Below are positions 1 through 41,593 of a stretch of DNA of 41,593 nt, piece by piece; the first letter of the stretch is position 1, and every line of letters begins with the position of its first letter. The DNA comes from Pseudomonas phage LKA1. The notes under the pieces are model-generated. The model saw only the letters and a program-made list of their open reading frames with translations, did no database searches and was not told the origin of the DNA. The stretch is from sequence record AM265639.1; one strand, written 5' to 3'. The translations under genes and the position numbers were made by a program.

Positions 1-298
1 TCCCACTACCGTGAAGGCCCGCGCGCCCCCATGCCCCTGCGTGCGCGTTTCTTCGCGTGCCTGCGCGGGGTACAGCTCGCGTGCGCTGTGCGTGCGTAGT
101 TGCCTCGCGGGTACGCACCTGCGTCGAGAGGTTCGGGTGCACGGCGCGTGGAGAGGTTCTAGCGCGGTTCTACCTTCTGCGGCCTAGTAACCTGGTAGGC
201 GGCCCGGTGGTTCCCTGGTGCGTTCCCTCCTCCCTTCCCTGGTACGGGTTCGGTTCCCTGGTGCGCCCTGGTGACTCTCCTCCTCCCTGGGGCTGCCT
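1..298. repeat. Left direct terminal repeat (DTR), 298 bp
   Basis: Bases 1-298 (tcccactaccgtgaaggcc ... ggggctgcct) are identical to 41296-41593 at the other end of the window. This is what a T7-like terminally redundant linear genome looks like. Confidence 0.95.
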
Positions 299-462
299 TG
301 CCTCTTTTGCCCTGCCCTGCCCTGGTGCGTTACCTGGTCACTGCCATGGCTTCCCTGGTAGCACCTGGCTCGCTTCACTGGTTTCCGTCTTCGCCGGCGG
401 CCTCCTGTTCCGGCCGGCCTTCGAGCGCTCAGTCTGGCCCCGCCGCCTTCGCTTCTCTCATG

Positions 463-476
463 CTAGTGCGACAATT
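463..476 (-). promoter_or_regulatory. T7-promoter-like motif, copy A (leftward); 27-bp identity with copy B
   Basis: The reverse complement of 455-484 reads aaaagaattgtcgcactagcatgagag. The first 25 nt are identical to copy B (17841-17865). The core AATTGTCGCACTAG resembles T7-group promoters (GACTCACTATA). Confidence 0.45.
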
Positions 477-518
477 CTTTTGAATATAAGTACCACTAGG
501 TTATATAACGAATTGGTA

Positions 519-547
519 TTGACGGGGCTTCAGCAGGTCTGTAGAGT
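519..547 (+). promoter_or_regulatory. Sigma70-type promoter TTGACG-N17-TAGAGT, with an AT-rich upstream stretch (478-518)
   Basis: The hexamers and a 17-nt spacer were read directly. It is the first of three early host-type promoters in the left non-coding kb, as expected for phiKMV/T7-like early transcription. Confidence 0.5.
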
Positions 548-691
548 TCGCAGCCATGGTTAGGCCATAAGCAATACGGACTAGCCAACGCAAGGCAAGG
601 TAGTGGTTCTGGTCTAGGGATCAGGTGAGGCGGGCAACGGTACACGCCAACCACTACTGGTCAAGCAAGGCACGGCGAAGGCTAGCCAAGC

Positions 692-719: not shown

Positions 720-951
720 GCGAGTCGTAACTCAAGGTAGCCGCTGCGAACTGGGCTCAGGCTGATGGTTAGCATGCTAGACTGTAATCCCTAGGGTCTA
801 AGGGTTCCGCCGGTCCTAGACGGTGGTCACGTAAAGCCGCTGGTTGATGATTCCAGCAATTGCTAGGCACTGGTCGCGATGGTAAGGCGACAGGCGGCAC
901 GGTCCGGCGAGAGACCGATGGTCGCCAGCTTCACCGCTCTTTAACAAGTCG

Positions 952-3616: not shown

Positions 3617-3632
3617 CCGCTGCACTCGCAGC
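3611..3632 (+). promoter_or_regulatory. Conserved element CCGTAACCGCTGCACTCGCAGC, copy 2
   Basis: Perfect GCTGC-actc-GCAGC hairpin. Sits in the 45-nt gap before ATG 3662. Followed by CCGAAACC. Confidence 0.45.
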
Positions 3633-6928: not shown

Positions 6929-6950
6929 CCGTAACCGCTGCACTCGCAGC
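6929..6950 (+). promoter_or_regulatory. Conserved element CCGTAACCGCTGCACTCGCAGC, copy 3
   Basis: 22-nt identity with copy 2. Lies in the 105-nt gap before ATG 6979, after the candidate hairpin at 6893-6920. Confidence 0.45.
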
Positions 6951-17679: not shown

Positions 17680-18710
17680 TGGGTAAGCACCTCGTAACAC
17701 GCAAGAGCTTCTCGGACGAGGACATTGCCAAGGCACTGTTGGTTGGCGGTGGTAACAAGACCCACGCAGCACAACACCTCACGAATATGGGACGCGGGGT
17801 AGTAAGTCGGGAACTCCTGCGACACTGGTTAAAACAGGGTAAAAAGAATTGTCGCACTAGCATGAGTGAAACGACGGGCGAGCAGGCCGGATGTGCCACG
17901 AGTGCTGCGGGAACGGGGACCCGCCCCGTCGAAGACGGCCCATGTATCCTGAGCATCGACATCGAGACGAGTCCCATCGAAGGTCGAGTGTGGGGACTCT
18001 GGAAGCAGAACCTCGGACTGAACCAGATCACCAAGGAATGGAACATCCTCAGCTACTGTGCGAAGTGGCTGGGTGATCCTAACGTGATCTACTCCGACCT
18101 CTCCCAGGCAGAGAACATTGCAGATGATAGTAAGCTAGTAGCTGAGCTGTACGAACTGCTGAATGAAGCAGACCTTGTAGTGGCACAGAACGGTAAGCGA
18201 TTCGATCTACCGAAGATTCAAGCCCGCTTCGTGATGGCTGGTTACAAACCACCTCGCCCGTTCCGCGTAATCGACACCATGCTCATGGCGAAGCAGCAGT
18301 TCGGCTTCACCAGTAACAAGCTGGAGTGGATGACCGACAAACTCTGCACCACCAAGAAGCGCAAGCATGAGAAGTTCCCCGGTATGGAGTTGTGGAACCA
18401 GTGCTTGGCAGGCAACCCGGAAGCCTGGGAGGAGATGCGGCTGTACAACATCGACGACGTAATCTCGTTGGAGGAGTTGTACTTGATCCTACGCCCCTGG
18501 TATCAAGGCCATCCGAACGTGGCGGTGTTCAACGATGGGCAGGAGATCGCTTGTCCGAAGTGCGGCTCGCACGACCTCAAGCGCGATGGGTGGACATTCA
18601 CCCAGTCCGGTAAGTACGAGCTTTATCATTGCAACGGTTGCGGCGGTTACAGCCGTGGACGCTACACCAAAAACTCGAAGGAGGTGCGTTATGCCCAGCT
18701 ATCCAATTGA
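17679..18710 (+). CDS. DEDD-type exonuclease with N-terminal HTH-like segment and C-terminal zinc ribbon, 343 aa
   Basis: ILSIDIETSP is a DEDD exo motif I (DxE). C-terminal CPKCGS ... CNGCGG. The first ~60 aa (DIAKALLVGGGNKTHAAQHLTNMGRGVVSRELLRHWL) look like a separate HTH. The T7-promoter-like motif B and an in-frame ATG (17862) sit exactly at that boundary. Confidence 0.6.
   Translation: MGKHLVTRKSFSDEDIAKALLVGGGNKTHAAQHLTNMGRGVVSRELLRHWLKQGKKNCRTSMSETTGEQAGCATSAAGTGTRPVEDGPCILSIDIETSPIEGRVWGLWKQNLGLNQITKEWNILSYCAKWLGDPNVIYSDLSQAENIADDSKLVAELYELLNEADLVVAQNGKRFDLPKIQARFVMAGYKPPRPFRVIDTMLMAKQQFGFTSNKLEWMTDKLCTTKKRKHEKFPGMELWNQCLAGNPEAWEEMRLYNIDDVISLEELYLILRPWYQGHPNVAVFNDGQEIACPKCGSHDLKRDGWTFTQSGKYELYHCNGCGGYSRGRYTKNSKEVRYAQLSN
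17847..17860 (+). promoter_or_regulatory. T7-promoter-like motif, copy B
   Basis: aaaagaattgtcgcactagcATGagtg lies inside the exonuclease ORF. It is immediately followed by an in-frame ATG at the boundary between the HTH and exonuclease parts. Confidence 0.45.
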
Positions 18711-19197: not shown

Positions 19198-19381
19198 GTG
19201 CCTATCGTGCTTGCGCGGCCCTGGCTGCTGCAAACTGTTCCCACGGAAAGTCTTCAATGCAGAGGTACTCGACATCAACGAGCTGCGCGTGTACCACGCC
19301 AGGAACGTAGATGAAGCCGCTGCACTCGCGGCTGAGGAGTTCGGCGAAAACAACATTGGCCGCGTGTACCCTAAGCTCTAA
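19190..19381 (+). CDS. Hypothetical protein, 63 aa; carries hairpin element copy 4
   Basis: ATG 19190 overlaps the upstream stop. The GCCGCTGCACTCGCGGC palindrome lies inside its 3' part, about 60 nt before the RNAP start. Confidence 0.4.
   Translation: MSECLSCLRGPGCCKLFPRKVFNAEVLDINELRVYHARNVDEAAALAAEEFGENNIGRVYPKL
19316..19332 (+). promoter_or_regulatory. Conserved element GCCGCTGCACTCGCGGC, copy 4
   Basis: Perfect GCCGC-tgcactc-GCGGC palindrome about 60 nt before the RNAP start. It is embedded in the 3' part of the small upstream ORF. Confidence 0.4.
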
Positions 19382-19390
19382 GGACCTGTG

Positions 19391-21826
19391 ATGATCGACC
19401 CTATCGAAGCGCAGATGCAGCGCGAGAAGCGCCACAGCGCTGAGGCTACTGCCCAGCACCTACGCGAAGTTCAAGAGGCCCTGCGTGCCGGCAGGGTCGA
19501 TGACATCCCAGCAGCCCGTCGCCTCATCGCCCGTGTGTACGAGGATGTGCGGGCTGCACTGGAGCCGGTTGTGGAGACCAAGGCACGCGGCCCAGGAGCA
19601 GCCCTGCGTGGCTGGCTGCGCCGGGTGCCTATCGACACCCTCGCCGTTCTGAGCATCCGCGTCGTCCTGGCGCACGTCATGCGGGACACCGCCGAGTCAC
19701 CAGCCACCCTACAACGCATCGGCCACGCCCTCGGGCGGGCCATCGAGCAGGAGGCCCTGGTGCAGGAGGCATACCGTGCGAACGCGCTGTACCTCGACCG
19801 GACTTGGGAGTACCTGCGCACAGCGGGCACGACCAGTCAGCGGCACATTCAGAAGACGATGCGTGCTGTGGTACACAACGTCCTGGAAGGTCAGTTCGAC
19901 GGGCACCTGACGAACGCTGAGTACATCCACCTCGGCAAGCACGGCCTCCAGGCGTGCCTGGATGCTGGTCTGGTGGAGTTGCAGCGGCACGGGCAGGGTG
20001 CGAAGACGAATGCGATCTACGTCCTCCCGGCTGAGGTGCGGGAGGTCCTCGCCTTCGTGCCACCTGAGATTAGCGGTGCAGCGCAGATGATGTTCGCTGA
20101 GCCGACCCCATGGGACGGGGCGGCGGGCGGCGGGTACTACACCGAGCGTATGAAGATCGACTTCCCACTGCGCCGTGTGAACCGCCGTACTCGCAAGCCG
20201 TTGCGCCGCGTCATCCGGGACAACGTGGGGAAATGCACCGATGTGCTCGCCTGTGCGAACTACCTCCAGGCCCAGGCGTTCAGCATACACACCCCCACCT
20301 TGGAGCTGATCAAGCAGGTGTGGAACAGCGGCGGCGGTGCCCTGGGCATCCCGAAGCGCGAGGCACCGCCCGAGCCGGCGTTCCCATTCCCAGAGACCTG
20401 GGACAAGGACTCAGCTACCGAGGCGGAGCTGGAGCGCTTTGCGAGTTGGAAGCGCCGTATGCACGCCTGGCACATGGGTAAGAAGGAACTCCGCAAAGCA
20501 CAGCAAGGCATCGGCCAGGCCCTCCGTGTCTCTGCCGGCGCTGCTGCTCGAGTGTGGTTCCCGACGTTCATCGACAGCCGTGGTCGGTACTACTACCGTG
20601 GGGTGTTGAACCCGCAAGGGGACGAGATGTGTAAGGCGCTGTTGCACTTCGCCGACAAGCGCCCGCTGGGCGAGCGTGGCCTGTACTGGATACAGGTGCA
20701 TGTGGCGAACTGCTTCGGCGAGGACAAGGCACGCTTCGATGCTCGGGCAGCCTGGGCTGTTGAGCGCAAGGCTGAGTTGTTCGCAGCCCTGGAGGCACCG
20801 GCAGACTCGTGCTTTGCCGAGGCCGACACCCCGCTCGGGGCATTCGCTGCCGTGTGGGAATGGCGCGAGGCCGAGCGCTCCGGCAACCCAGCAGCGTACT
20901 GCACTGGCCTGCCGATCCACATGGACGCGACCTGCTCTGGCCTCCAGCACTTCTCAGCGATGCTCCGCGACCCGGTGGGTGGGCAGTACGTGAACCTGTA
21001 CGACAGCGGTGGCGACTCCAAGGCCGACATCTACCGCAAGGTGGCCGAGGTGGCGCAGACCCGGATCAACCGCGACGCAGCCAACCCGGCCTCGAAGGAC
21101 TGGCACCTGGCCAAGCTCTGGACCCAGTGGGAGATTCCCCGCACCCTGGCTAAGGGGCCTGTAATGACCTACGTATATGGCGCGACACTGCGCGGTGTAG
21201 CGGAGGGCATTGCCGACTGGCTGGAAGAGCAACAGGCGATCGTGCCCGATGGTGTCCGTATCTTCGACCTAGCATACTACCTGGGCCGTGTGCTGTTCTC
21301 GGCAATCGAGGATGTGGTGCCTGCTGCCGCCGCAGCGATGCGTTGGCTCCGGGAGCGGGCACGCAGCGCCGCTGGCGACACACCGATGTTGTGGTTCAGC
21401 CCGACTGGCCTACTGGTCGAGCACGACTACCGCGACTTCGTGGAGCACCGGGTTAAGATCAGGTCGTGCGGTATCACGGACATCGTGGTGCGGGAGGACC
21501 TGGACCAGACCCGAGGCAACCGGATGCAGAATGCCGTGGCACCGAACTTCGTACACGCCCTAGACGCAGCGCACCTAACCTTCACGGCCCGACTGCTGGA
21601 GGACGGTGGACATGCAATGGTGGCGATCCACGACAGCTTTGGTACACACCCCTCTAGCGTGGATGAAATGCACACAGCTATCCGGGAGGCGTTTGTGCGG
21701 CTGTACTCGGAGTTCGATCCTATCACTCTGTTCCTGCGTGGGATCGGGCAGGAGGAGGTAGCACCACCGCCGAAAGGGAACCTGGACTTGACCCTGTTCC
21801 GAAGCTCGGAATTTGGGTTCTGTTAA
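19391..21826 (+). CDS. Single-subunit DNA-dependent RNA polymerase (T7-like), 811 aa
   Basis: Catalytic motif C AIHDSFGTH. Palm motif A region LPIHMDATCSGLQHFSAM. Size and placement at the end of the replication block are phiKMV-type. Confidence 0.95.
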   Translation: MIDPIEAQMQREKRHSAEATAQHLREVQEALRAGRVDDIPAARRLIARVYEDVRAALEPVVETKARGPGAALRGWLRRVPIDTLAVLSIRVVLAHVMRDTAESPATLQRIGHALGRAIEQEALVQEAYRANALYLDRTWEYLRTAGTTSQRHIQKTMRAVVHNVLEGQFDGHLTNAEYIHLGKHGLQACLDAGLVELQRHGQGAKTNAIYVLPAEVREVLAFVPPEISGAAQMMFAEPTPWDGAAGGGYYTERMKIDFPLRRVNRRTRKPLRRVIRDNVGKCTDVLACANYLQAQAFSIHTPTLELIKQVWNSGGGALGIPKREAPPEPAFPFPETWDKDSATEAELERFASWKRRMHAWHMGKKELRKAQQGIGQALRVSAGAAARVWFPTFIDSRGRYYYRGVLNPQGDEMCKALLHFADKRPLGERGLYWIQVHVANCFGEDKARFDARAAWAVERKAELFAALEAPADSCFAEADTPLGAFAAVWEWREAERSGNPAAYCTGLPIHMDATCSGLQHFSAMLRDPVGGQYVNLYDSGGDSKADIYRKVAEVAQTRINRDAANPASKDWHLAKLWTQWEIPRTLAKGPVMTYVYGATLRGVAEGIADWLEEQQAIVPDGVRIFDLAYYLGRVLFSAIEDVVPAAAAAMRWLRERARSAAGDTPMLWFSPTGLLVEHDYRDFVEHRVKIRSCGITDIVVREDLDQTRGNRMQNAVAPNFVHALDAAHLTFTARLLEDGGHAMVAIHDSFGTHPSSVDEMHTAIREAFVRLYSEFDPITLFLRGIGQEEVAPPPKGNLDLTLFRSSEFGFC

Positions 21827-21838
21827 TTGTCGCACTAT
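21825..21838 (+). promoter_or_regulatory. T7-promoter-like motif, copy C, at the RNAP stop codon
   Basis: ttaattgtcgcactataatga overlaps the RNAP TAA. An RBS (AGGAG) follows about 10 nt downstream. This is the first position from which late or structural transcription would be expected. Confidence 0.5.
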
Positions 21839-26172: not shown

Positions 26173-26808
26173 ATGCAACTTACTTTTCTTGAGGCGGTGA
26201 ACCTCGTCCTACGAGAACTCGGCGAGACCCCCGTGACCTCTGTAGACGAGACGTACCCCACGCTGGCGCAGATTCTCCCAGCTATGGAGGACGCTCGCCG
26301 AAACACCCTCGCCGAGGGTTGGTGGTTCAACAGCTTTGATGACTTCACCGCAAGTCCCTCGCCGGCTGGTGAGGTGCTTCTATCCGAGGATACCTTGGCC
26401 TTCTATCCAGACGATGTGGAGAAGTTCACCTGGGCGGGCCGTTACGTCCGTGTTACTGGTACAGGTTCTAAGGTAGTTGGCGCTCCGGTGAAGGGGCGTG
26501 TCGTACTGGATATCCCCTACGACGAGCTACCCGAGGGTATGCGCTATCTCGTGGTGTACCGCTGCGCCTACGAGGTGTACGTCGCCGACTTCGGCGCGGA
26601 TAGTACGGCACAGGTCATTGCGAACAAGATGTCCGCAGCATACGTGGAGGTCCGGGCGGTCCACATCCGGCAGCGGAAGCTCACCCTGCGGAAGCGGACC
26701 CCGGCCACCAGTGGCGTCAAGCGAGGTACAACTAATGAGTTACTTTGCAGGATCGTACCGGCAGCTCCTGTTTGGCGTAAGTCAACAGACTGCCAAGGAT
26801 CGCCTTGA
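26173..26808 (+). CDS. Tail tubular protein A (T7 gp11-like), 211 aa
   Basis: AAGGAGA before ATG 26173. The N-terminus (MQLTFLEAVNLVLRELGETPVTSVDE) aligns with T7 gp11. The 3' 74 nt overlap the tubular B start. Confidence 0.8.
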   Translation: MQLTFLEAVNLVLRELGETPVTSVDETYPTLAQILPAMEDARRNTLAEGWWFNSFDDFTASPSPAGEVLLSEDTLAFYPDDVEKFTWAGRYVRVTGTGSKVVGAPVKGRVVLDIPYDELPEGMRYLVVYRCAYEVYVADFGADSTAQVIANKMSAAYVEVRAVHIRQRKLTLRKRTPATSGVKRGTTNELLCRIVPAAPVWRKSTDCQGSP

Positions 26809-29068
26809 GGGGCAGGTCGAGTCGCAGTTGAACATGCAGAGTGATCTGGTGACAGGTCCTCGCCGCCGTAGTCCGGTGCACCTGATCGCCGACGCCATGG
26901 CCGCTACCGATGCCAACCGCCTCGCGTACTCCCTCGCCACATTCTCGGGGCGCGAGGTGCTGCTGCTGGTGGACACACTGGACGGGACGCTGACTATCCT
27001 CGACGATGCAACCGGTGAAGTCCTGTTCACGGGGACAAACAGCTACCTTACCGCAGGTACAGGGAGAAGCATCCGATTCGCAGCACTAGATGACAGCGTG
27101 TTCGTGGCGAATACCGAGGTTATCCCGCAAACGCAGCTATGGTCTGGTGCGAGTGCGTACCCGGACCCAACCCGTGCGGGCTACCTGTACGTAGTCGCCG
27201 GGGCGTTCTCGAAGCAGTACCGCCTATCCATCACCAACCAGGTCACGGGGGTCACGACTTCCGTAGACGTGACCACCTCTGCAACAGAGGCCAGTCAGGC
27301 TACCGGCGAGTACGTGATCACGCAGCTCCGCACGGCGGCAGAGGCGGATGCAACCATTGGTACTGCTGCCGGTTTTGCGTACTACCAGGACGGTGCGTAC
27401 CTGTACGTTACCGCGCCAGAGGCAATCGCGGTGAGTACCGACTCTGGCAGTAACTTCCTCCGGGCAAGTAATGCAGCCAGTATCAGGGACGCCGCCGAGC
27501 TGCCTGCAAAACTACCTGCCGATGCGGATGGGTTCATCATCGCTACCGGCGCCGCTAAGAACAAGACATACTTCCGCTGGGTCGATCTTGAGCGGAAGTG
27601 GGACGAGGATGCGTCTCGGGGTGCACAAGCTGAGCTGATCGACATGCCGCTACGGATCACGTACTCGGCCCCGAACTTCAGCCTGACTGCCTTGAACTAC
27701 GAGCGCCGTGCCTCTGGGGACGCTACGTCGAACCCTGCCTTGAAGTTCACCGAGCAGGGTATCTCTGGGATGACGACCATGCAGGGGCGGTTGGTCTTGC
27801 TGGCTGGCGAGTACGTGTGCATGTCCGCAAGCGGGAACCCACTGCGTTGGTTCCGGGCCAGTGTCAGTACCCAGTCTGACGACGATCCTATCGAGGTCGC
27901 GGCTACTGCACCAGTGGCCTCCCCGTATGAGTACGCCGTGGCCTTCAACAAGGACCTGGTGCTCTTTGCCAAAACCCACCAGGGCCTGGTGCCGGGGGCG
28001 AACCTACTCACGAGTCGCAACGCCACAGCGGCGGTCGTTACAGAGTACAGCTTCCAGAACTCCTGCTCGCCTGTGGTCGCTGGGCGCACAGTGTTCTTTG
28101 CCAGTCCCCGTAGCGGTCCATGGAGCGCGGTGTGGGAGATGCTGCCAAGCCAGTACACTGATGCCCAAGTGGAGGCGAGCGACAGTACGTCGCACCTGCC
28201 GAAGTACATTGCGGGGCCTGTACGCTTCTTGGCGACCTCCAGTACAACGAGCATCGTGGTCGTGGGTACGTCGAATCTCCGCGAGTTGGTTGTGCACGAG
28301 TACCTCTGGCAAGGTGGGGAGAAGGTTCACGCCGCGTGGCATAAGTGGAGCTTCCCGCAGGACATCACGGGTGCGTACTTCCGGGGCGACCGCCTCATCC
28401 TGCTGTTCCACGTTGCGGGTCGGGTCATCCTCGGCGAGCTGTTCATGCAACGCCTTGGGGATGCCCAGAGTATCCCAGGTGGATTCCTGGACCTGTACCG
28501 TGTCGGGGCGGCCAACGCGGACGAGGAGGTGGCCATCCCAGCGTTTGCTGCGGACCTGTACCCGGAGGATAGCACCTTCGCGTACAAGCTCTCGGGCGAG
28601 TTCCAGTCCCTCGGCCAGCGCTGTGGGGATCGTCGGGTAGACGGGGCCACGGTGTACATCAAGGTCGTCGGGGCACAGGCGGGAGATCAGTACCGCATTG
28701 GCTTACGCTACCTCTCGAAGCTCGGGCCGACCCGCCCCATCCTCCGGGACCCCAACGGCGTACCGATCACTACAGAGCGCACGCAGTTGCACCGTCTAAC
28801 GTGGTCTCTGGACAGTACCGGGGAAGTGACGTTCCGTGTGGCCGATCAGGCACGCGGGGAGTCCGCGTACACGACCACGCCGCTTCGCCTGTACAGTCGG
28901 GACCTGGGCGCGGGTTTGCCCTTAGCGGCAACGGCAACCCTCGACACCCCTGCCAGGGTGGATATGCAGACGGCGCAGTTCTCCCTGGAGACTGACGACT
29001 ACTACGACATGAACATTACCAGCCTGGAGTACGGGTTCCGGTACAACCAGCGCTATAGGAGGCAGTAA
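26735..29068 (+). CDS. Tail tubular protein B (T7 gp12-like), 777 aa
   Basis: The N-terminus (MSYFAGSYRQLLFGVSQQTAKDRLEGQ) aligns with T7 gp12 residue for residue at the GxSQQ motif. TAATG coupling to the next gene. Confidence 0.85.
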   Translation: MSYFAGSYRQLLFGVSQQTAKDRLEGQVESQLNMQSDLVTGPRRRSPVHLIADAMAATDANRLAYSLATFSGREVLLLVDTLDGTLTILDDATGEVLFTGTNSYLTAGTGRSIRFAALDDSVFVANTEVIPQTQLWSGASAYPDPTRAGYLYVVAGAFSKQYRLSITNQVTGVTTSVDVTTSATEASQATGEYVITQLRTAAEADATIGTAAGFAYYQDGAYLYVTAPEAIAVSTDSGSNFLRASNAASIRDAAELPAKLPADADGFIIATGAAKNKTYFRWVDLERKWDEDASRGAQAELIDMPLRITYSAPNFSLTALNYERRASGDATSNPALKFTEQGISGMTTMQGRLVLLAGEYVCMSASGNPLRWFRASVSTQSDDDPIEVAATAPVASPYEYAVAFNKDLVLFAKTHQGLVPGANLLTSRNATAAVVTEYSFQNSCSPVVAGRTVFFASPRSGPWSAVWEMLPSQYTDAQVEASDSTSHLPKYIAGPVRFLATSSTTSIVVVGTSNLRELVVHEYLWQGGEKVHAAWHKWSFPQDITGAYFRGDRLILLFHVAGRVILGELFMQRLGDAQSIPGGFLDLYRVGAANADEEVAIPAFAADLYPEDSTFAYKLSGEFQSLGQRCGDRRVDGATVYIKVVGAQAGDQYRIGLRYLSKLGPTRPILRDPNGVPITTERTQLHRLTWSLDSTGEVTFRVADQARGESAYTTTPLRLYSRDLGAGLPLAATATLDTPARVDMQTAQFSLETDDYYDMNITSLEYGFRYNQRYRRQ

Positions 29069-29706: not shown

Positions 29707-32271
29707 ATGGCTGAACTCGATCCGCCGCGCTTGCGGCTAGCTACTGGCAACCTGGGCCAGGTGGGTGGTTACAACCCGCAACGATTCCAGGCAGAGCGTG
29801 CGCAGGCCGAGGACAACGTAGCGCTCCAGGCCCTGAGTGGCCTGCTCCAGATTGGCGAGAGTATCGCTCAGGAGAAGTTCGCTTCCGACGTGAAGCAGGA
29901 GTACATGCAGGGTCAGCGGGCACGGATGCTCGGGCAGGCCCTGGAGGATGTGGAGGGCGATCCGCTCGCCCGCCCGTTCATCCGGGGCGGGTTCCAAGAT
30001 CAAGACTACCGTATCCGCCAGGCGGAGATGAGTCAGCGGGTGCAGGCGTTCATCCAAACCAAGGGGCGCATGTTGCCGCCTGAGCAGTTCCTTCAGGAGT
30101 TGGGGCGAGAGTCCCGTGCGATCCTAGAGGGTATGGGTGACGGCCTGTCTAATCAGGGCCGTGCCCAGGCCCTCGCCTCCCAGACTCAACTGGAGGAGGC
30201 CCTCGTCGGTGCCCACGCTAAGGCATACAAGGCGTGGGGTATTGAGGAGGTTGGTAAGCGCATCTCTGCGCAGGGCAACAGTATCCTGACAAGCTACGGC
30301 AAGGCCAAGCTCGGCGGTGACTTCGAGGCGCAGCAGCAGTACGCCTCGCAGATTGTAGGCTTCTACCGCGACGTGGCTGCCTCTGACACCCTGCCCGAGG
30401 ACATGCGGCAGCAGGTGGCTGAGCAGTTCCTGATGGGTGTGCTCAGTGAAGATCACCGCGAGGTGGTCACAGCCATGAAGGACATGGGCCTCCTGGACAC
30501 CCTTGGGTTCGACACCCGGACAAAGGTGAACGAGGGGATTCGAGCCTCGGAGGGCCGTACCCGCGCCCTGGACGCCGTGGGGATCAGCCGCAGCTCTGCT
30601 GAGTTCGAGGCCCGTGTCGAGCAAGGTGCCATTACGCCCGAGGATATGCTGCTGTATACGGCGCAGGAGGCTGCTGCGGGGCGCATGACAGCGAATCAGC
30701 AGAAGGCCCTGTGGGACAAGTGGTACACGTCGAGGTCGAACAAGCAGGCATTGGTGGGTGCTATGGACGCCCTGCAACGGGGTGATAAGCAGGCCCTGGA
30801 CAATCTCGGCTGGTCCGTACCCGAGGCCCTGGACGCCTGGTACGAGCAGGCAGACCTCCAGCAAATGCCAGTGGCCACTAAGGCCGCAACAGCCCTGCGT
30901 ATGGGGGCACGCCTCGGCACCCTCCCTAAACGCGCAGCGACTGAGGTGAGCGCCGCCGTGCGCAGTTTGACCCTGAACCCGGATGCTGCAAACCCAGCAC
31001 AGGTCGAGCTTGTGCGGGCCTTCGCGGACGAGGCCATTCGAGTGTCCACCACGAACCCGGAAGGGGAGTCAACCCTCCTTAGCGCCCTGGATCGAGAGAT
31101 TCAACCCCTGTTCAGCCAGATGCTAGTGGACGTGCCAAACGGCACTGACCCGGTGCAGAGCCTACGCAATGCGGCCCTGGCCCAGGCAGCCTACGAACGG
31201 CAGGATCAGCCGTCCAGGCAGGCCCAGACCCGCAAGCTGGAGGAGGCTGTCCAGGCTGAGATTCAGACTGGCAAGTTCTCCCAGCTCTGGGGGCTTGTCA
31301 CGGAAGGTAGCAGAACCCGGAACGAGGGTCAAGCGTTCGAGACGCTGCGGGCACAGACTACCATGGAGGCAGCTGCCCTGGCACGCCAGCCCCAGTACGC
31401 CGGGTTGGCGCCCAGTGCGATTGCGAAACTGGCTGCCGCCAGAGTCAAGGAACGCACCATCGAAGTCAGCCCGGAGGGTAGCAAGACCACGCGGGTAGTG
31501 CTTCCAAGAAATGTCGCACTAGAACGACTAGTAGATAACCCCCGAGCCACAAAAGATCGGGTGTCGGCTGCACTGGTGACATTGTACCCACCATCTGCGA
31601 AAGGATTCCAACGGGAGTTCTACACGGACGGTGTAGGCGTGTGGACGACGGAAGTGGATTCCGATGGCGTCCCCGCAGCGCCGGAGCTGGTGAATTGGCA
31701 GCGGGTCAGTCAGCAGATCGACAAGCAGATCGACGAGACTGTCGGCAAGGCCAACCGTGCTTACGTGGGTGAGGTGGTTAAGCACGGCGAGGTCGAGCTG
31801 AGTATCTCAGGCCGCACAAGCACGAGTATCCGACCGGACGCTGTGTTGCAGTGGCGCCGCGATCTTGTGCAGCAAGAGGGTATTCGCCTGACTGCGTACA
31901 AGGATCGTAACGGCGTAGCCATAGGCGTCGGCGAGAACGTCACTGGGCGCATGAAGGTCGGCGACACGATCACCCGCGAAGAAGCCGAGTTGGCATTCCT
32001 CGACAGTTCCGACAGGGCACTGCTGGAAGGCGAGCGCATTGCGCAAGAGCTGGGCGTAACTGCTGTGTGGTCGAAGCTGGCCCTTGGCAGCGCCGTGTAT
32101 CAGCTCGGCCCGCAAGGTGCCCGTGGGTTCGAGAAGACCTTCGAGGCAATCCGCAACAAGGACTTCGACACCTTCGAGAAGCAGGTGCGGAAGTCCAAGT
32201 GGTACAAGCAAACCCCAGATCGTGCCGAATACTTCATCACGAAGATGCAGGGGCACTTCTACGGAAACTAA
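29707..32271 (+). CDS. Internal virion protein with C-terminal T4-lysozyme-like (GH24) domain, 854 aa
   Basis: The C-terminal ~150 aa (QEGIRLTAYKDRNGVAIGVGENV ... KSKWYKQTPDRAEYFITKMQG) align with T4 lysozyme ([23 protein letters not shown] ... [22 protein letters not shown]), including the catalytic Glu. Confidence 0.8.
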   Translation: MAELDPPRLRLATGNLGQVGGYNPQRFQAERAQAEDNVALQALSGLLQIGESIAQEKFASDVKQEYMQGQRARMLGQALEDVEGDPLARPFIRGGFQDQDYRIRQAEMSQRVQAFIQTKGRMLPPEQFLQELGRESRAILEGMGDGLSNQGRAQALASQTQLEEALVGAHAKAYKAWGIEEVGKRISAQGNSILTSYGKAKLGGDFEAQQQYASQIVGFYRDVAASDTLPEDMRQQVAEQFLMGVLSEDHREVVTAMKDMGLLDTLGFDTRTKVNEGIRASEGRTRALDAVGISRSSAEFEARVEQGAITPEDMLLYTAQEAAAGRMTANQQKALWDKWYTSRSNKQALVGAMDALQRGDKQALDNLGWSVPEALDAWYEQADLQQMPVATKAATALRMGARLGTLPKRAATEVSAAVRSLTLNPDAANPAQVELVRAFADEAIRVSTTNPEGESTLLSALDREIQPLFSQMLVDVPNGTDPVQSLRNAALAQAAYERQDQPSRQAQTRKLEEAVQAEIQTGKFSQLWGLVTEGSRTRNEGQAFETLRAQTTMEAAALARQPQYAGLAPSAIAKLAAARVKERTIEVSPEGSKTTRVVLPRNVALERLVDNPRATKDRVSAALVTLYPPSAKGFQREFYTDGVGVWTTEVDSDGVPAAPELVNWQRVSQQIDKQIDETVGKANRAYVGEVVKHGEVELSISGRTSTSIRPDAVLQWRRDLVQQEGIRLTAYKDRNGVAIGVGENVTGRMKVGDTITREEAELAFLDSSDRALLEGERIAQELGVTAVWSKLALGSAVYQLGPQGARGFEKTFEAIRNKDFDTFEKQVRKSKWYKQTPDRAEYFITKMQGHFYGN
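31509..31522 (+). promoter_or_regulatory. T7-promoter-like motif, copy D
   Basis: agaaatgtcgcactagaacga lies inside the 854-aa internal virion protein gene, about 750 nt before its end. Confidence 0.4.
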
Positions 32272-40726: not shown

Positions 40727-40847
40727 ACCCGTCCGCTGCCAGCATCCCGCTGTGCAACCGGACACCAACGCTGGACTGGTCCTCGGACTGCTGGCGTACC
40801 ACAAGGCCGTAGAACAGTGCAATGCGCTGAACGGCTTCATTGACTGA
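40650..40847 (+). CDS. o-spanin (Rz1), lipoprotein, 65 aa, in the +1 frame of Rz
   Basis: MKNLLGGMLLCLLPFVASC has the lipobox VASC. Pro-rich mature part with a C-terminal Cys. It starts inside Rz and ends 121 nt past the Rz stop. Confidence 0.7.
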   Translation: MKNLLGGMLLCLLPFVASCASSSSAEPVRCQHPAVQPDTNAGLVLGLLAYHKAVEQCNALNGFID

Positions 40848-40858
40848 AGGAGAAACAC

Positions 40859-41182
40859 ATGAGCATTACTTCCGCAACTGCTGCACAAGTCCTGACCGCC
40901 CGCGACAAAGCAGCCATCGCGCTGCCGTACCTCCAGCGCTTCGCTCAGGGTGATTGGGACCCGCAGAATCCTGCCTTGGGTGCGACCCTGGTCGCCGAGG
41001 TGGATGCTGCCTTGGATGCTGCCTTGTCGTCGTTGCGTACTGCCGGCGCTGTACTGCCGGCCACGGAGACTGTCGTGGTTAATGGGCAGGCCCTGACTGG
41101 TGTCGCCCCGACCGGCACCTACAGCACCACAGTGACCTTCACCGTTGCATCCGGCGCCATCACCGCTATCGCGTTGAGTTAA
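40859..41182 (+). CDS. Hypothetical protein, 107 aa, last gene
   Basis: GAAGGAGA before ATG 40859. Ala/Thr/Val-rich product. Position is equivalent to T7 gp19.5. Confidence 0.5.
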   Translation: MSITSATAAQVLTARDKAAIALPYLQRFAQGDWDPQNPALGATLVAEVDAALDAALSSLRTAGAVLPATETVVVNGQALTGVAPTGTYSTTVTFTVASGAITAIALS

Positions 41183-41295
41183 GGCTACGGCGTGCTCAGG
41201 GTGCTCCGGTCTTACCGGGCGCCTTGGGTGCGGGTGGTCTCAGGGTGGTGTGTTCTAACTGGCGGCTTGAATTTGCTGCAACCATCCGCCAGACC

Positions 41296-41593
41296 TCCCA
41301 CTACCGTGAAGGCCCGCGCGCCCCCATGCCCCTGCGTGCGCGTTTCTTCGCGTGCCTGCGCGGGGTACAGCTCGCGTGCGCTGTGCGTGCGTAGTTGCCT
41401 CGCGGGTACGCACCTGCGTCGAGAGGTTCGGGTGCACGGCGCGTGGAGAGGTTCTAGCGCGGTTCTACCTTCTGCGGCCTAGTAACCTGGTAGGCGGCCC
41501 GGTGGTTCCCTGGTGCGTTCCCTCCTCCCTTCCCTGGTACGGGTTCGGTTCCCTGGTGCGCCCTGGTGACTCTCCTCCTCCCTGGGGCTGCCT
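41296..41593. repeat. Right direct terminal repeat (DTR), 298 bp
   Basis: Exact copy of 1-298. The window ends on the last repeated base. Confidence 0.95.

Follow-up and report, generated by a model that had tools for sequence, protein, structure and literature searches.

Promoters of phiKMV-like phages had been hard to identify (PMC10914365). In phage LUZ19 they were mapped by ONT-cappable-seq, and the phage-specific ones share the sequence GgtTATGTCACacACAnnGG (Putzeys et al., 2024, PMC10914365). Two of these lie just after the RNA polymerase (RNAP) gene and another in the structural region; P001, in the early region, is on the opposite strand. The start of P001 was mapped, its antisense transcripts cross the genome end onto gp47-49, and the arrangement is reported for 15 other Phikmvvirus species (PMC10914365). 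The authors' hypothesis is that P001 transcription blocks late read-through into the early genes (PMC10914365). So far, an antisense left-end phage promoter with transcript mapping has been reported only in LUZ19 and its genus. In phage KP34, the strong promoter S2 (nt 475-490) was validated in vitro (Lu et al., 2019, PMC6834552). The left end of T7 carries the leftward Escherichia coli promoter A0 at nt 224, phiOL (a secondary origin) at nt 405, an AT-rich region at 411-465 and A1 at nt 498. Here we analyze the left end of Pseudomonas phage LKA1, where a promoter-like motif lies on the minus strand close to the direct terminal repeat (DTR) at this end. The window is the whole genome (record AM265639.1; 41,593 bp, 61% G+C). 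The account that we hold to be on balance probable is that the segment 460-547 consists of a promoter for the phage RNAP facing left and an early sigma70-type promoter, P1, facing right, set back to back and sharing an AT-rich patch, and that leftward transcription would cross the concatemer junction, with insulation as its proposed role.

The first and the last 298 bases of the LKA1 genome are identical and form an exact DTR, its length being that cited in PMC3765740. A leftward transcript from the region considered here would traverse the left copy (1-298). The region delimited by the first-pass annotation of this DNA (299-560) begins one base past the DTR end, and the motif copy, AATTGTCGCACTAG at 463-476 on the minus strand, against the direction of every gene, is found as that annotation placed it. 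A motif search of the genome returned it as the only phage-promoter motif near the DTR on either side. Three forward copies are located on the plus strand. One, at 17847-17860, is identical to the left-end motif (14/14) and lies inside the gene for the exonuclease subunit of the DNA polymerase. Another, at 21825-21838 (13/14), lies in front of the structural genes and overlaps the RNAP stop codon, and the third, at 31509-31522 (one mismatch), lies inside the internal virion protein gene (29707-32271), at a position like that of LUZ19 P009. The RNAP open reading frame (ORF) itself, 19388-21826, encodes a T7-type single-subunit enzyme (phrog_414 match, E = 4e-230) and immediately precedes the structural genes. 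The motif core TGTCGCAC resembles the mapped LUZ19 sequence GgtTATGTCACacACAnnGG, with TGTC(G/A)CAC common to both. Judged from sequence, AATTGTCGCACTAG is best read as the promoter of the phage's own RNAP, and the copy on the minus strand is very probably a genuine promoter from which this enzyme would transcribe leftward. In its full extent this promoter reads AAAAGAATTGTCGCACTAGCAT and spans 460-481.

We next compared lineages. For each genome, the motif at the RNAP stop codon was recorded, and the whole genome was then searched for that motif on both strands. The six lineages have six different motifs: AATTGTCGCACTAG in LKA1, TTATGTCACCCACA in LUZ19, GAAGCCGGATATAATGG in Bertil, CGATTATGTCTCCC in phiNV3, TAATGTGACATACATAGG in MR12 and TTTGAAGTTGCACTTATA in Acinetobacter phage AS11, a Friunavirus. 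In 6/6, exactly one inverted (minus-strand) copy of the genome's own motif is located near the left end, at 463, 736, 555, 1036, 104 and 649, respectively. A site recognized by the cognate polymerase would be expected to show just this, namely an inverted copy that follows the forward promoters as they change. PP90 (Corkvirinae) showed no clear promoter motif at its RNAP stop codon. The position of the inverted copy is also shared: in the five Pseudomonas phages the first TTGAC...TA...T promoter follows it on the right at a distance of 42-161 nt, and in four of them motifs of the CCTT(G/A)CCTCT type and a block with a strongly pyrimidine-rich plus strand are found on its left, the MR12 record beginning too near the site to show either. 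In AS11 it follows the DTR, and a sigma70-like TTGACG comes about 165 nt to its right (read by eye). Because the inverted copy recurs across lineages, each time changed with the promoter of its own polymerase, the single inverted left-end copy appears to be a layout of old standing, maintained by selection in two or more subfamilies of T7-like phages. As to the AS11 record, it annotates TTTGAAGTTGCACTAATA as a phage-RNAP promoter in forward copies only; the inverted copy of this promoter occupies 649-666 (minus), between the 340-bp DTR and the first gene.

Within the LKA1 group, ten left ends were collected: those of phiPLS27, HHBS14_1, HHBS51_1, one IMG/VR contig, five metagenome contigs and the window. 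The nearest records in the phage collection searched are phiPLS27 (a left-end fragment), HHBS14_1 and HHBS51_1, with about 85% identity. Segment identities were calculated as the mean pairwise value over nine left ends, one near-duplicate contig being left out. The promoter segment (0.93, with 17/20 columns invariant) and the palindrome GTTATATAAC at 500-509 (0.96) are the best conserved, followed by the first 40 nt of the predicted leftward transcript and the ATAAG box region (0.88 each) and by P1 (0.77). The spacer 491-499 (0.52), the CCCTGG repeat region (0.44) and the right part of the DTR (0.31) are much more variable; these flanks, 31-52% identical, contain indels of lengths not divisible by three. 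A distance of 42 nt separates the edge of the motif from the -35 hexamer of P1 in 8/9 left ends. This pattern suggests that promoter, leader and palindrome are under purifying selection in LKA1-like left ends. A 17-mer scan of genome contigs additionally matched nine unrelated organisms; these matches were judged to be due to chance and were not used. Two of the records deserve a comment: that of HHBS51_1 has 76,435 bp, nearly twice an LKA1-like genome, with the LKA1-like left end about 5 kb inside, and is maybe a chimeric assembly, and that of HHBS14_1 carries a minus-strand "hypothetical protein" (26595-28226) at the expected place of the scaffold and capsid genes.

Comparison with LUZ19 places the LKA1 element in an already known class, because its LUZ19 equivalent, P001, has a mapped start and antisense transcripts that cross the genome end. 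We located the LUZ19 promoter sites by a motif search of its record, at 732-751 (minus), 21115, 21312 and 35590 (all plus); its DTR ends at 472, and its first annotated sigma70 promoter is at 913. Both phages have a single minus-strand phage-RNAP promoter between the left DTR and the first sigma70 promoter, forward copies at or just after the RNAP gene and within the gene for an internal virion protein, a pyrimidine-rich plus strand between DTR and promoter, a CCTTGCCTCT motif at the DTR edge, and homologous first sigma70 promoters. They differ in several respects. LUZ19 belongs to another genus, its RNAP (gp26) and that of LKA1 are 38% identical, and the promoters diverge outside the TGTC.CAC core. 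The inverted promoter is 42 nt from the sigma70 -35 hexamer in LKA1 but 161 nt in LUZ19, and the A+T fraction of the spacer is 0.71 in the former and 0.36 in the latter. LKA1 has a forward copy in the exonuclease-subunit gene, whereas LUZ19 has instead a second copy after the RNAP gene. The start and the junction-crossing transcripts were demonstrated in LUZ19, while the LKA1 side is known from sequence: its conservation, co-variation and geometry are observed, and from them we infer promoter activity and function.

Taking these data together, we propose the following sequence of events. At the start of infection, P1 (plus, 519-547) would be used by the host RNAP. Once the phage RNAP is made, that is, in middle and late infection, the promoter at 481-460 on the minus strand, as the LKA1-group counterpart of P001, would fire leftward from G459. 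The start may lie at G459 or at A461 (459-461, minus): G-A is kept at this distance in all four copies of the motif, the LUZ19 motif ends in GG, and other lineages begin GGAGAG at the equivalent place. The predicted RNA is non-coding, rich in purines and headed by a conserved leader of about 40-80 nt; it would run through the CCCTGG repeats, the motif at the DTR boundary and the DTR itself (298 bp). Where genome units are joined in replicating concatemers, it would extend, antisense, into the genes at the right end of the unit before, so that the phage RNAP would cross the concatemer junction against the flow of late transcription. As was proposed for LUZ19, this crossing may insulate the early region of the next unit from late read-through, and it may also serve junction processing. 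The first-pass suggestion that a leftward promoter would read across the DTR into the previous concatemer unit finds its counterpart in the P001 transcripts that reach gp47-49, and by this analogy transcription across the DTR is well supported. Insulation of the early genes, antisense control of the right-end genes, maturation of DNA ends with junction processing, and DNA priming are all candidate roles. A search for terminator-like sites on the minus strand, from 459 to the left end and in the last 2 kb of the window, found none.

Between the two promoters lies an AT-rich spacer (482-518) which includes the ATAAG box (486-490), the variable stretch 491-499, the palindrome GTTATATAAC (500-509) and TGGTA (514-518). 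To its right, P1 reads TTGACG-17-TAGAGT and matches 9/12 consensus positions, in agreement with the sigma70-type promoter called there in the first-pass annotation; it is conserved in the relatives, and its start can be placed near 554. P1 has GTATTGAC...AGGTCTGTAGAGTTCGC in common with the annotated first sigma70 promoter of LUZ19 (913-948); the two are nearly identical and homologous. The AT-richness recorded in the first pass was likewise recovered: 478-518 is 73% A+T, the AT extreme of the genome falls at 464-532 for every scan size from 20 to 100 nt, and 473-522 is the most AT-rich stretch of the whole window. The patch is made up of the A-rich edge of the phage promoter (AAAAG), the ATAAG box, and the palindrome with TGGTA, these boxes being at a fixed spacing from P1, and it is the shared upstream region of two divergent promoters. 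Palindrome and TGGTA occupy about -36 to -55 of P1; the strongly conserved A/T-rich segment from -59 to -38 reads ACTAGGTTATATAACGAATTGG. On sequence grounds we read them as a UP-like element or a factor-binding site for P1. The palindrome occurs once in the genome, and its outer arms are LKA1-specific. A near-match to the consensus of integration host factor (IHF) at 505-517 was dropped, as it is not conserved in the relatives. Spacers of other lineages contain repeats of their own: in Bertil (569-647, behind the inverted promoter) a direct repeat, TGGTCATTTATT, present twice, and in phiNV3 (1050-1112) a 10-bp inverted repeat, ATGGCATAAG...CTTATGCCAT. Their sequences suggest lineage-specific protein-binding sites between divergent promoters.

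The combination of a phage promoter with an AT-rich patch had led the first-pass annotation to suggest a replication origin of the T7 type. According to this explanation, phage-promoter transcription together with an easily melted patch would start DNA synthesis near 450-550, as at phiOL or phi1.1. The resemblance to T7 is real as far as linear order is concerned: just inside the left repeat, phage promoter, AT-rich patch and first strong host promoter follow one another, as do phiOL, the AT-rich region and A1. A phage-RNAP promoter is indeed present next to the genome's most AT-rich stretch, divergent transcription would be expected to put negative supercoiling into the patch, and the left-end element is paralogous to an internal promoter plus 85 nt in the replication gene cluster, a pairing that recalls the primary and secondary origins of T7. 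The orientation, however, is reversed. In T7, it is transcription from phiOL into the AT-rich region that makes phiOL an origin, the RNA being handed to the DNA polymerase there. T7 phiOL faces right, with the AT-rich region downstream; the LKA1 phage promoter faces left, and the leftward promoter that T7 aims at its terminal repeat, A0, is of the host type. Because the AT-rich patch of LKA1 lies behind the phage promoter and not ahead of it, the T7-type reading fails on geometry: the transcribed side is 67-69% G+C (67% over 300-459), a T7-like switch from RNA to DNA within an AT-rich region is impossible, and on a monomer no more than about 460 bp would be copied from a leftward primer. AT-richness as such is also not the conserved property, because spacer A+T varies by lineage (0.71 in LKA1, 0.65 in Bertil, 0.62 in phiNV3, 0.46 in MR12 and 0.36 in LUZ19, all with an inverted promoter) and the homologous patch in HHBS14_1 is not the AT extreme of its genome; what is kept in the patch are the boxes. 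Cumulative GC and AT skew, used as an origin test, were uninformative, the GC curve rising monotonically and giving no signal at the left end. We regard the origin idea as unsupported rather than refuted, and as very unlikely.

The leader of the predicted leftward transcript (+1 to about +80, 380-459, minus) contains candidate hairpins at 457-423, 416-398 and 397-385. Over the nine left ends, 423-462 is 88% identical, with 28/40 columns invariant, and the first hairpin has two covarying base pairs. The left-end element and the promoter at 17847 with its next 85 nt (17861-17945) are 70-74% identical over about 117 nt, and an alignment of the downstream parts only beats 300/300 shuffles; single-sequence folds give both a similar three-hairpin layout. 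The copies at 21825 and 31509 have only the motif in common with the left-end element, and in LUZ19 a search for extended paralogy of this kind found none, so that an 85-nt leader paralogous to an intragenic promoter region sets LKA1 apart from that phage. This similarity, far above that of shuffles and confined to one of the three forward copies, would fit an inert relic, i.e., a stretch of about 110 bp of the exonuclease-subunit gene (17837-17953) that was duplicated in inverted orientation to a place near the left end and brought along a promoter copy with no role of its own. Such a relic would hardly leave promoter and leader nearly invariant in ten left ends with flanks of only 31-52% identity; moreover, five other lineages that do not have this duplicated promoter sequence keep one inverted promoter at the same place, and the LUZ19 equivalent is transcriptionally active. 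The relic explanation is already disfavored, and we find it scarcely credible. Inverted copies in 4/5 Pseudomonas phages would begin their transcript with G(G)AGAG(A)AGCG, and the forward copies do not. The region 299-462 is non-coding: the ORFs 57-563 (plus), 271-483 (plus) and 184-378 (minus) were rejected, the region being 44% identical among relatives with non-triplet indels, and a 10-codon ORF from the ATG of the leader was rejected on account of a non-synonymous change in HHBS51_1.

To the left of the promoter, the plus strand carries a pyrimidine-rich block with CCCTGG(T) repeats (168-467; repeat families D1 and D3), the template for the predicted purine-rich RNA. It is the most pyrimidine-rich 300-nt stretch of the genome (67.7%, against 47.8 +/- 3.1%), and RNA copied from 300-459 would be 69% purine. 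The plus strand just inside the left DTR is the pyrimidine extreme of the genome also in LUZ19, Bertil, phiNV3, AS11 and KP34 (z = 4-7). The blocks were delimited at 392-691 in LUZ19, 53-552 in Bertil, 692-1033 in phiNV3, 341-648 in AS11 and 217-474 in KP34. The right edge of the left DTR is straddled by a boundary motif, GCCTTGCCTCTTTTGC (294-311, plus), kept in all LKA1-like left ends that reach there, with 80% identity compared with 31-44% in its flanks. Relatives of this motif stand at the DTR edge in LUZ19, KP34 and AS11, and boundary-like copies exist in Bertil and phiNV3. In the form (T/A)GCCTTGCCTCT(T/A)T it lies at most a few bases from the right-hand edge of the left DTR, both in LKA1-like phages (294-311 in the window) and in LUZ19 (473-503), KP34 (217-233) and AS11 (340-400), sometimes in two or three repeats. 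The DTR-edge motif may be a signal at which the terminase cuts or nicks or at which the RNAP pauses.

These features bear on a further explanation, in which the element acts in junction processing. RNAP moving from 459 across the DTR boundary would open the DNA or form an R-loop on the pyrimidine-rich template, and would thereby mark or prepare the junction for terminase cutting or prime duplication of the DTR, in a mirror image of T7. Maturation of T7 DNA depends on recognition of a concatemer-junction signal by T7 RNAP, which pauses there, and this precedent counts in favor. So do the standing of the promoter as the only one of its kind close to the DTR, the boundary motif lying exactly at the DTR edge in LKA1-like phages, LUZ19, KP34 and AS11, the strong purine bias of the RNA, and the conservation of the layout in two subfamilies. 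T7 phiOR and the concatemer junction (CJ) are comparable to the LKA1 element in that transcripts from a phage promoter cross the terminal repeat on concatemers with no obvious coding purpose, but there the repeat is entered from the other side, in the opposite direction. The T7 class II pause signal, ATCTGTT, is absent on both strands from 1-700 and 40800-41593, although a different RNAP may use a different signal; no canonical G-quadruplex motif was found in the transcribed block, and P001-type transcripts have no experimental link to packaging. KP34 also weighs against it. Its S2 is, like the LKA1 promoter, a phage-RNAP promoter between the left DTR (216 bp) and an early host promoter, the cores are related (TAATGTTACAGGAGTA against AATTGTCGCACTAGCA), and pyrimidine-rich block and DTR-edge motif are similar; yet S2, on the plus strand, faces right and away from the DTR, with 440 nt between it and the annotated sigma70 promoter. 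As an explanation in its own right we consider junction processing unlikely, while as a role for leftward transcription it fits the conserved DTR-edge motif and the purine-rich transcript just as well as insulation does. A more specific version, to which we give somewhat less credence still, is a conserved genome-end maturation module of phiKMV-like phages, made up of the DTR-edge motif, the pyrimidine block and the leftward promoter with its conserved G(G)AGAGAAGCG leader, in which a stable purine-rich RNA:DNA hybrid across the DTR boundary would prime repeat duplication or position the terminase cut. If true, it would be a case of transcription-coupled end formation running in the direction opposite to that of T7 phiOR/CJ.

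Several observations weigh against the back-to-back promoter account that we prefer, or against parts of it. Within the LKA1 genome, the statistics of the motif are weak: a 14-mer with three other sites at no more than one mismatch arose in 5/40 random genomes, and k-mer and neighbor statistics were not decisive either; the case for motif function rests on the comparison across genomes. The leftward start at G459 is placed purely by analogy, and a literature search turned up no transcriptome for LKA1-like phages. The folding energy of the leader is no better than that of shuffles (163-nt and 81-nt segments; z = +0.8 to -1.9), no consistent structure emerged when the left-end and intragenic paralogues were folded jointly to a consensus, and an Rfam scan of 1-1300 on both strands at E <= 1 gave no match; leader structure is therefore tentative, as are the hairpins, for which the two covarying pairs speak. 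ACTAGGTTATATAACGAATTGG, the upstream region of P1, matches the UP-element consensus poorly. Since KP34 combines a pyrimidine-rich block with a left-end promoter that faces right, the pyrimidine asymmetry belongs to the DTR-adjacent region and is not tied to leftward transcription. Finally, insulation is a published hypothesis for LUZ19 and not a result.

Some additional features of the window were recorded. At the right end, a hairpin, CTGGCGG-N20-CCGCCAG (41262-41295), abuts the right DTR copy, which starts at 41296, and is kept in HHBS14_1 and HHBS51_1; it recalls the inverted repeat implicated in the hairpin ends of T7 concatemer processing. Inside the DTR, the plus strand has a weak terminator-like hairpin formed by CATGCCCCTGCGTG and then CGCGTTTCTT (30-52 and 41325-41347). 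The first gene (990-1142; phrog_17580) is bracketed by a 21-nt inverted repeat with 95% complementarity (948-968/1160-1180); the third sigma70 promoter, at 1176, overlaps the right arm with its -35 hexamer. The arms could pair into a long-range RNA stem, for instance a processing site of the RNase III type. Another repeated motif, (gtaa)CCGCTGCACTCGC(agc), is confined to the plus strand, with exact copies at 3617-3629, 6935-6947 and 19317-19329 and copies with one mismatch at 1638 and 2766. Three of its copies lie 30-45 nt upstream of a ribosome-binding site and ATG belonging to early or middle ORFs; another precedes the RNAP gene by about 70 nt. The motif includes the small inverted repeat GCTGC-ACTC-GCAGC and may act as a middle-class promoter or as a hairpin for RNA processing.

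The analysis supplies a probable promoter for the LKA1 RNAP, of which no description was found in the literature searched (the original LKA1 genome paper excepted). The analysis also adds the co-variation evidence that at least six lineages from two subfamilies conserve one inverted left-end promoter, the constant back-to-back placement of this promoter relative to the first early one, and a leader paralogous to an intragenic promoter region. The orientation of this layout is opposite to that of T7 phiOL and KP34 S2. For the question of why the phage RNAP would be sent across the concatemer junction, the element at the left end of LKA1 offers a well-defined and easily mutated site.

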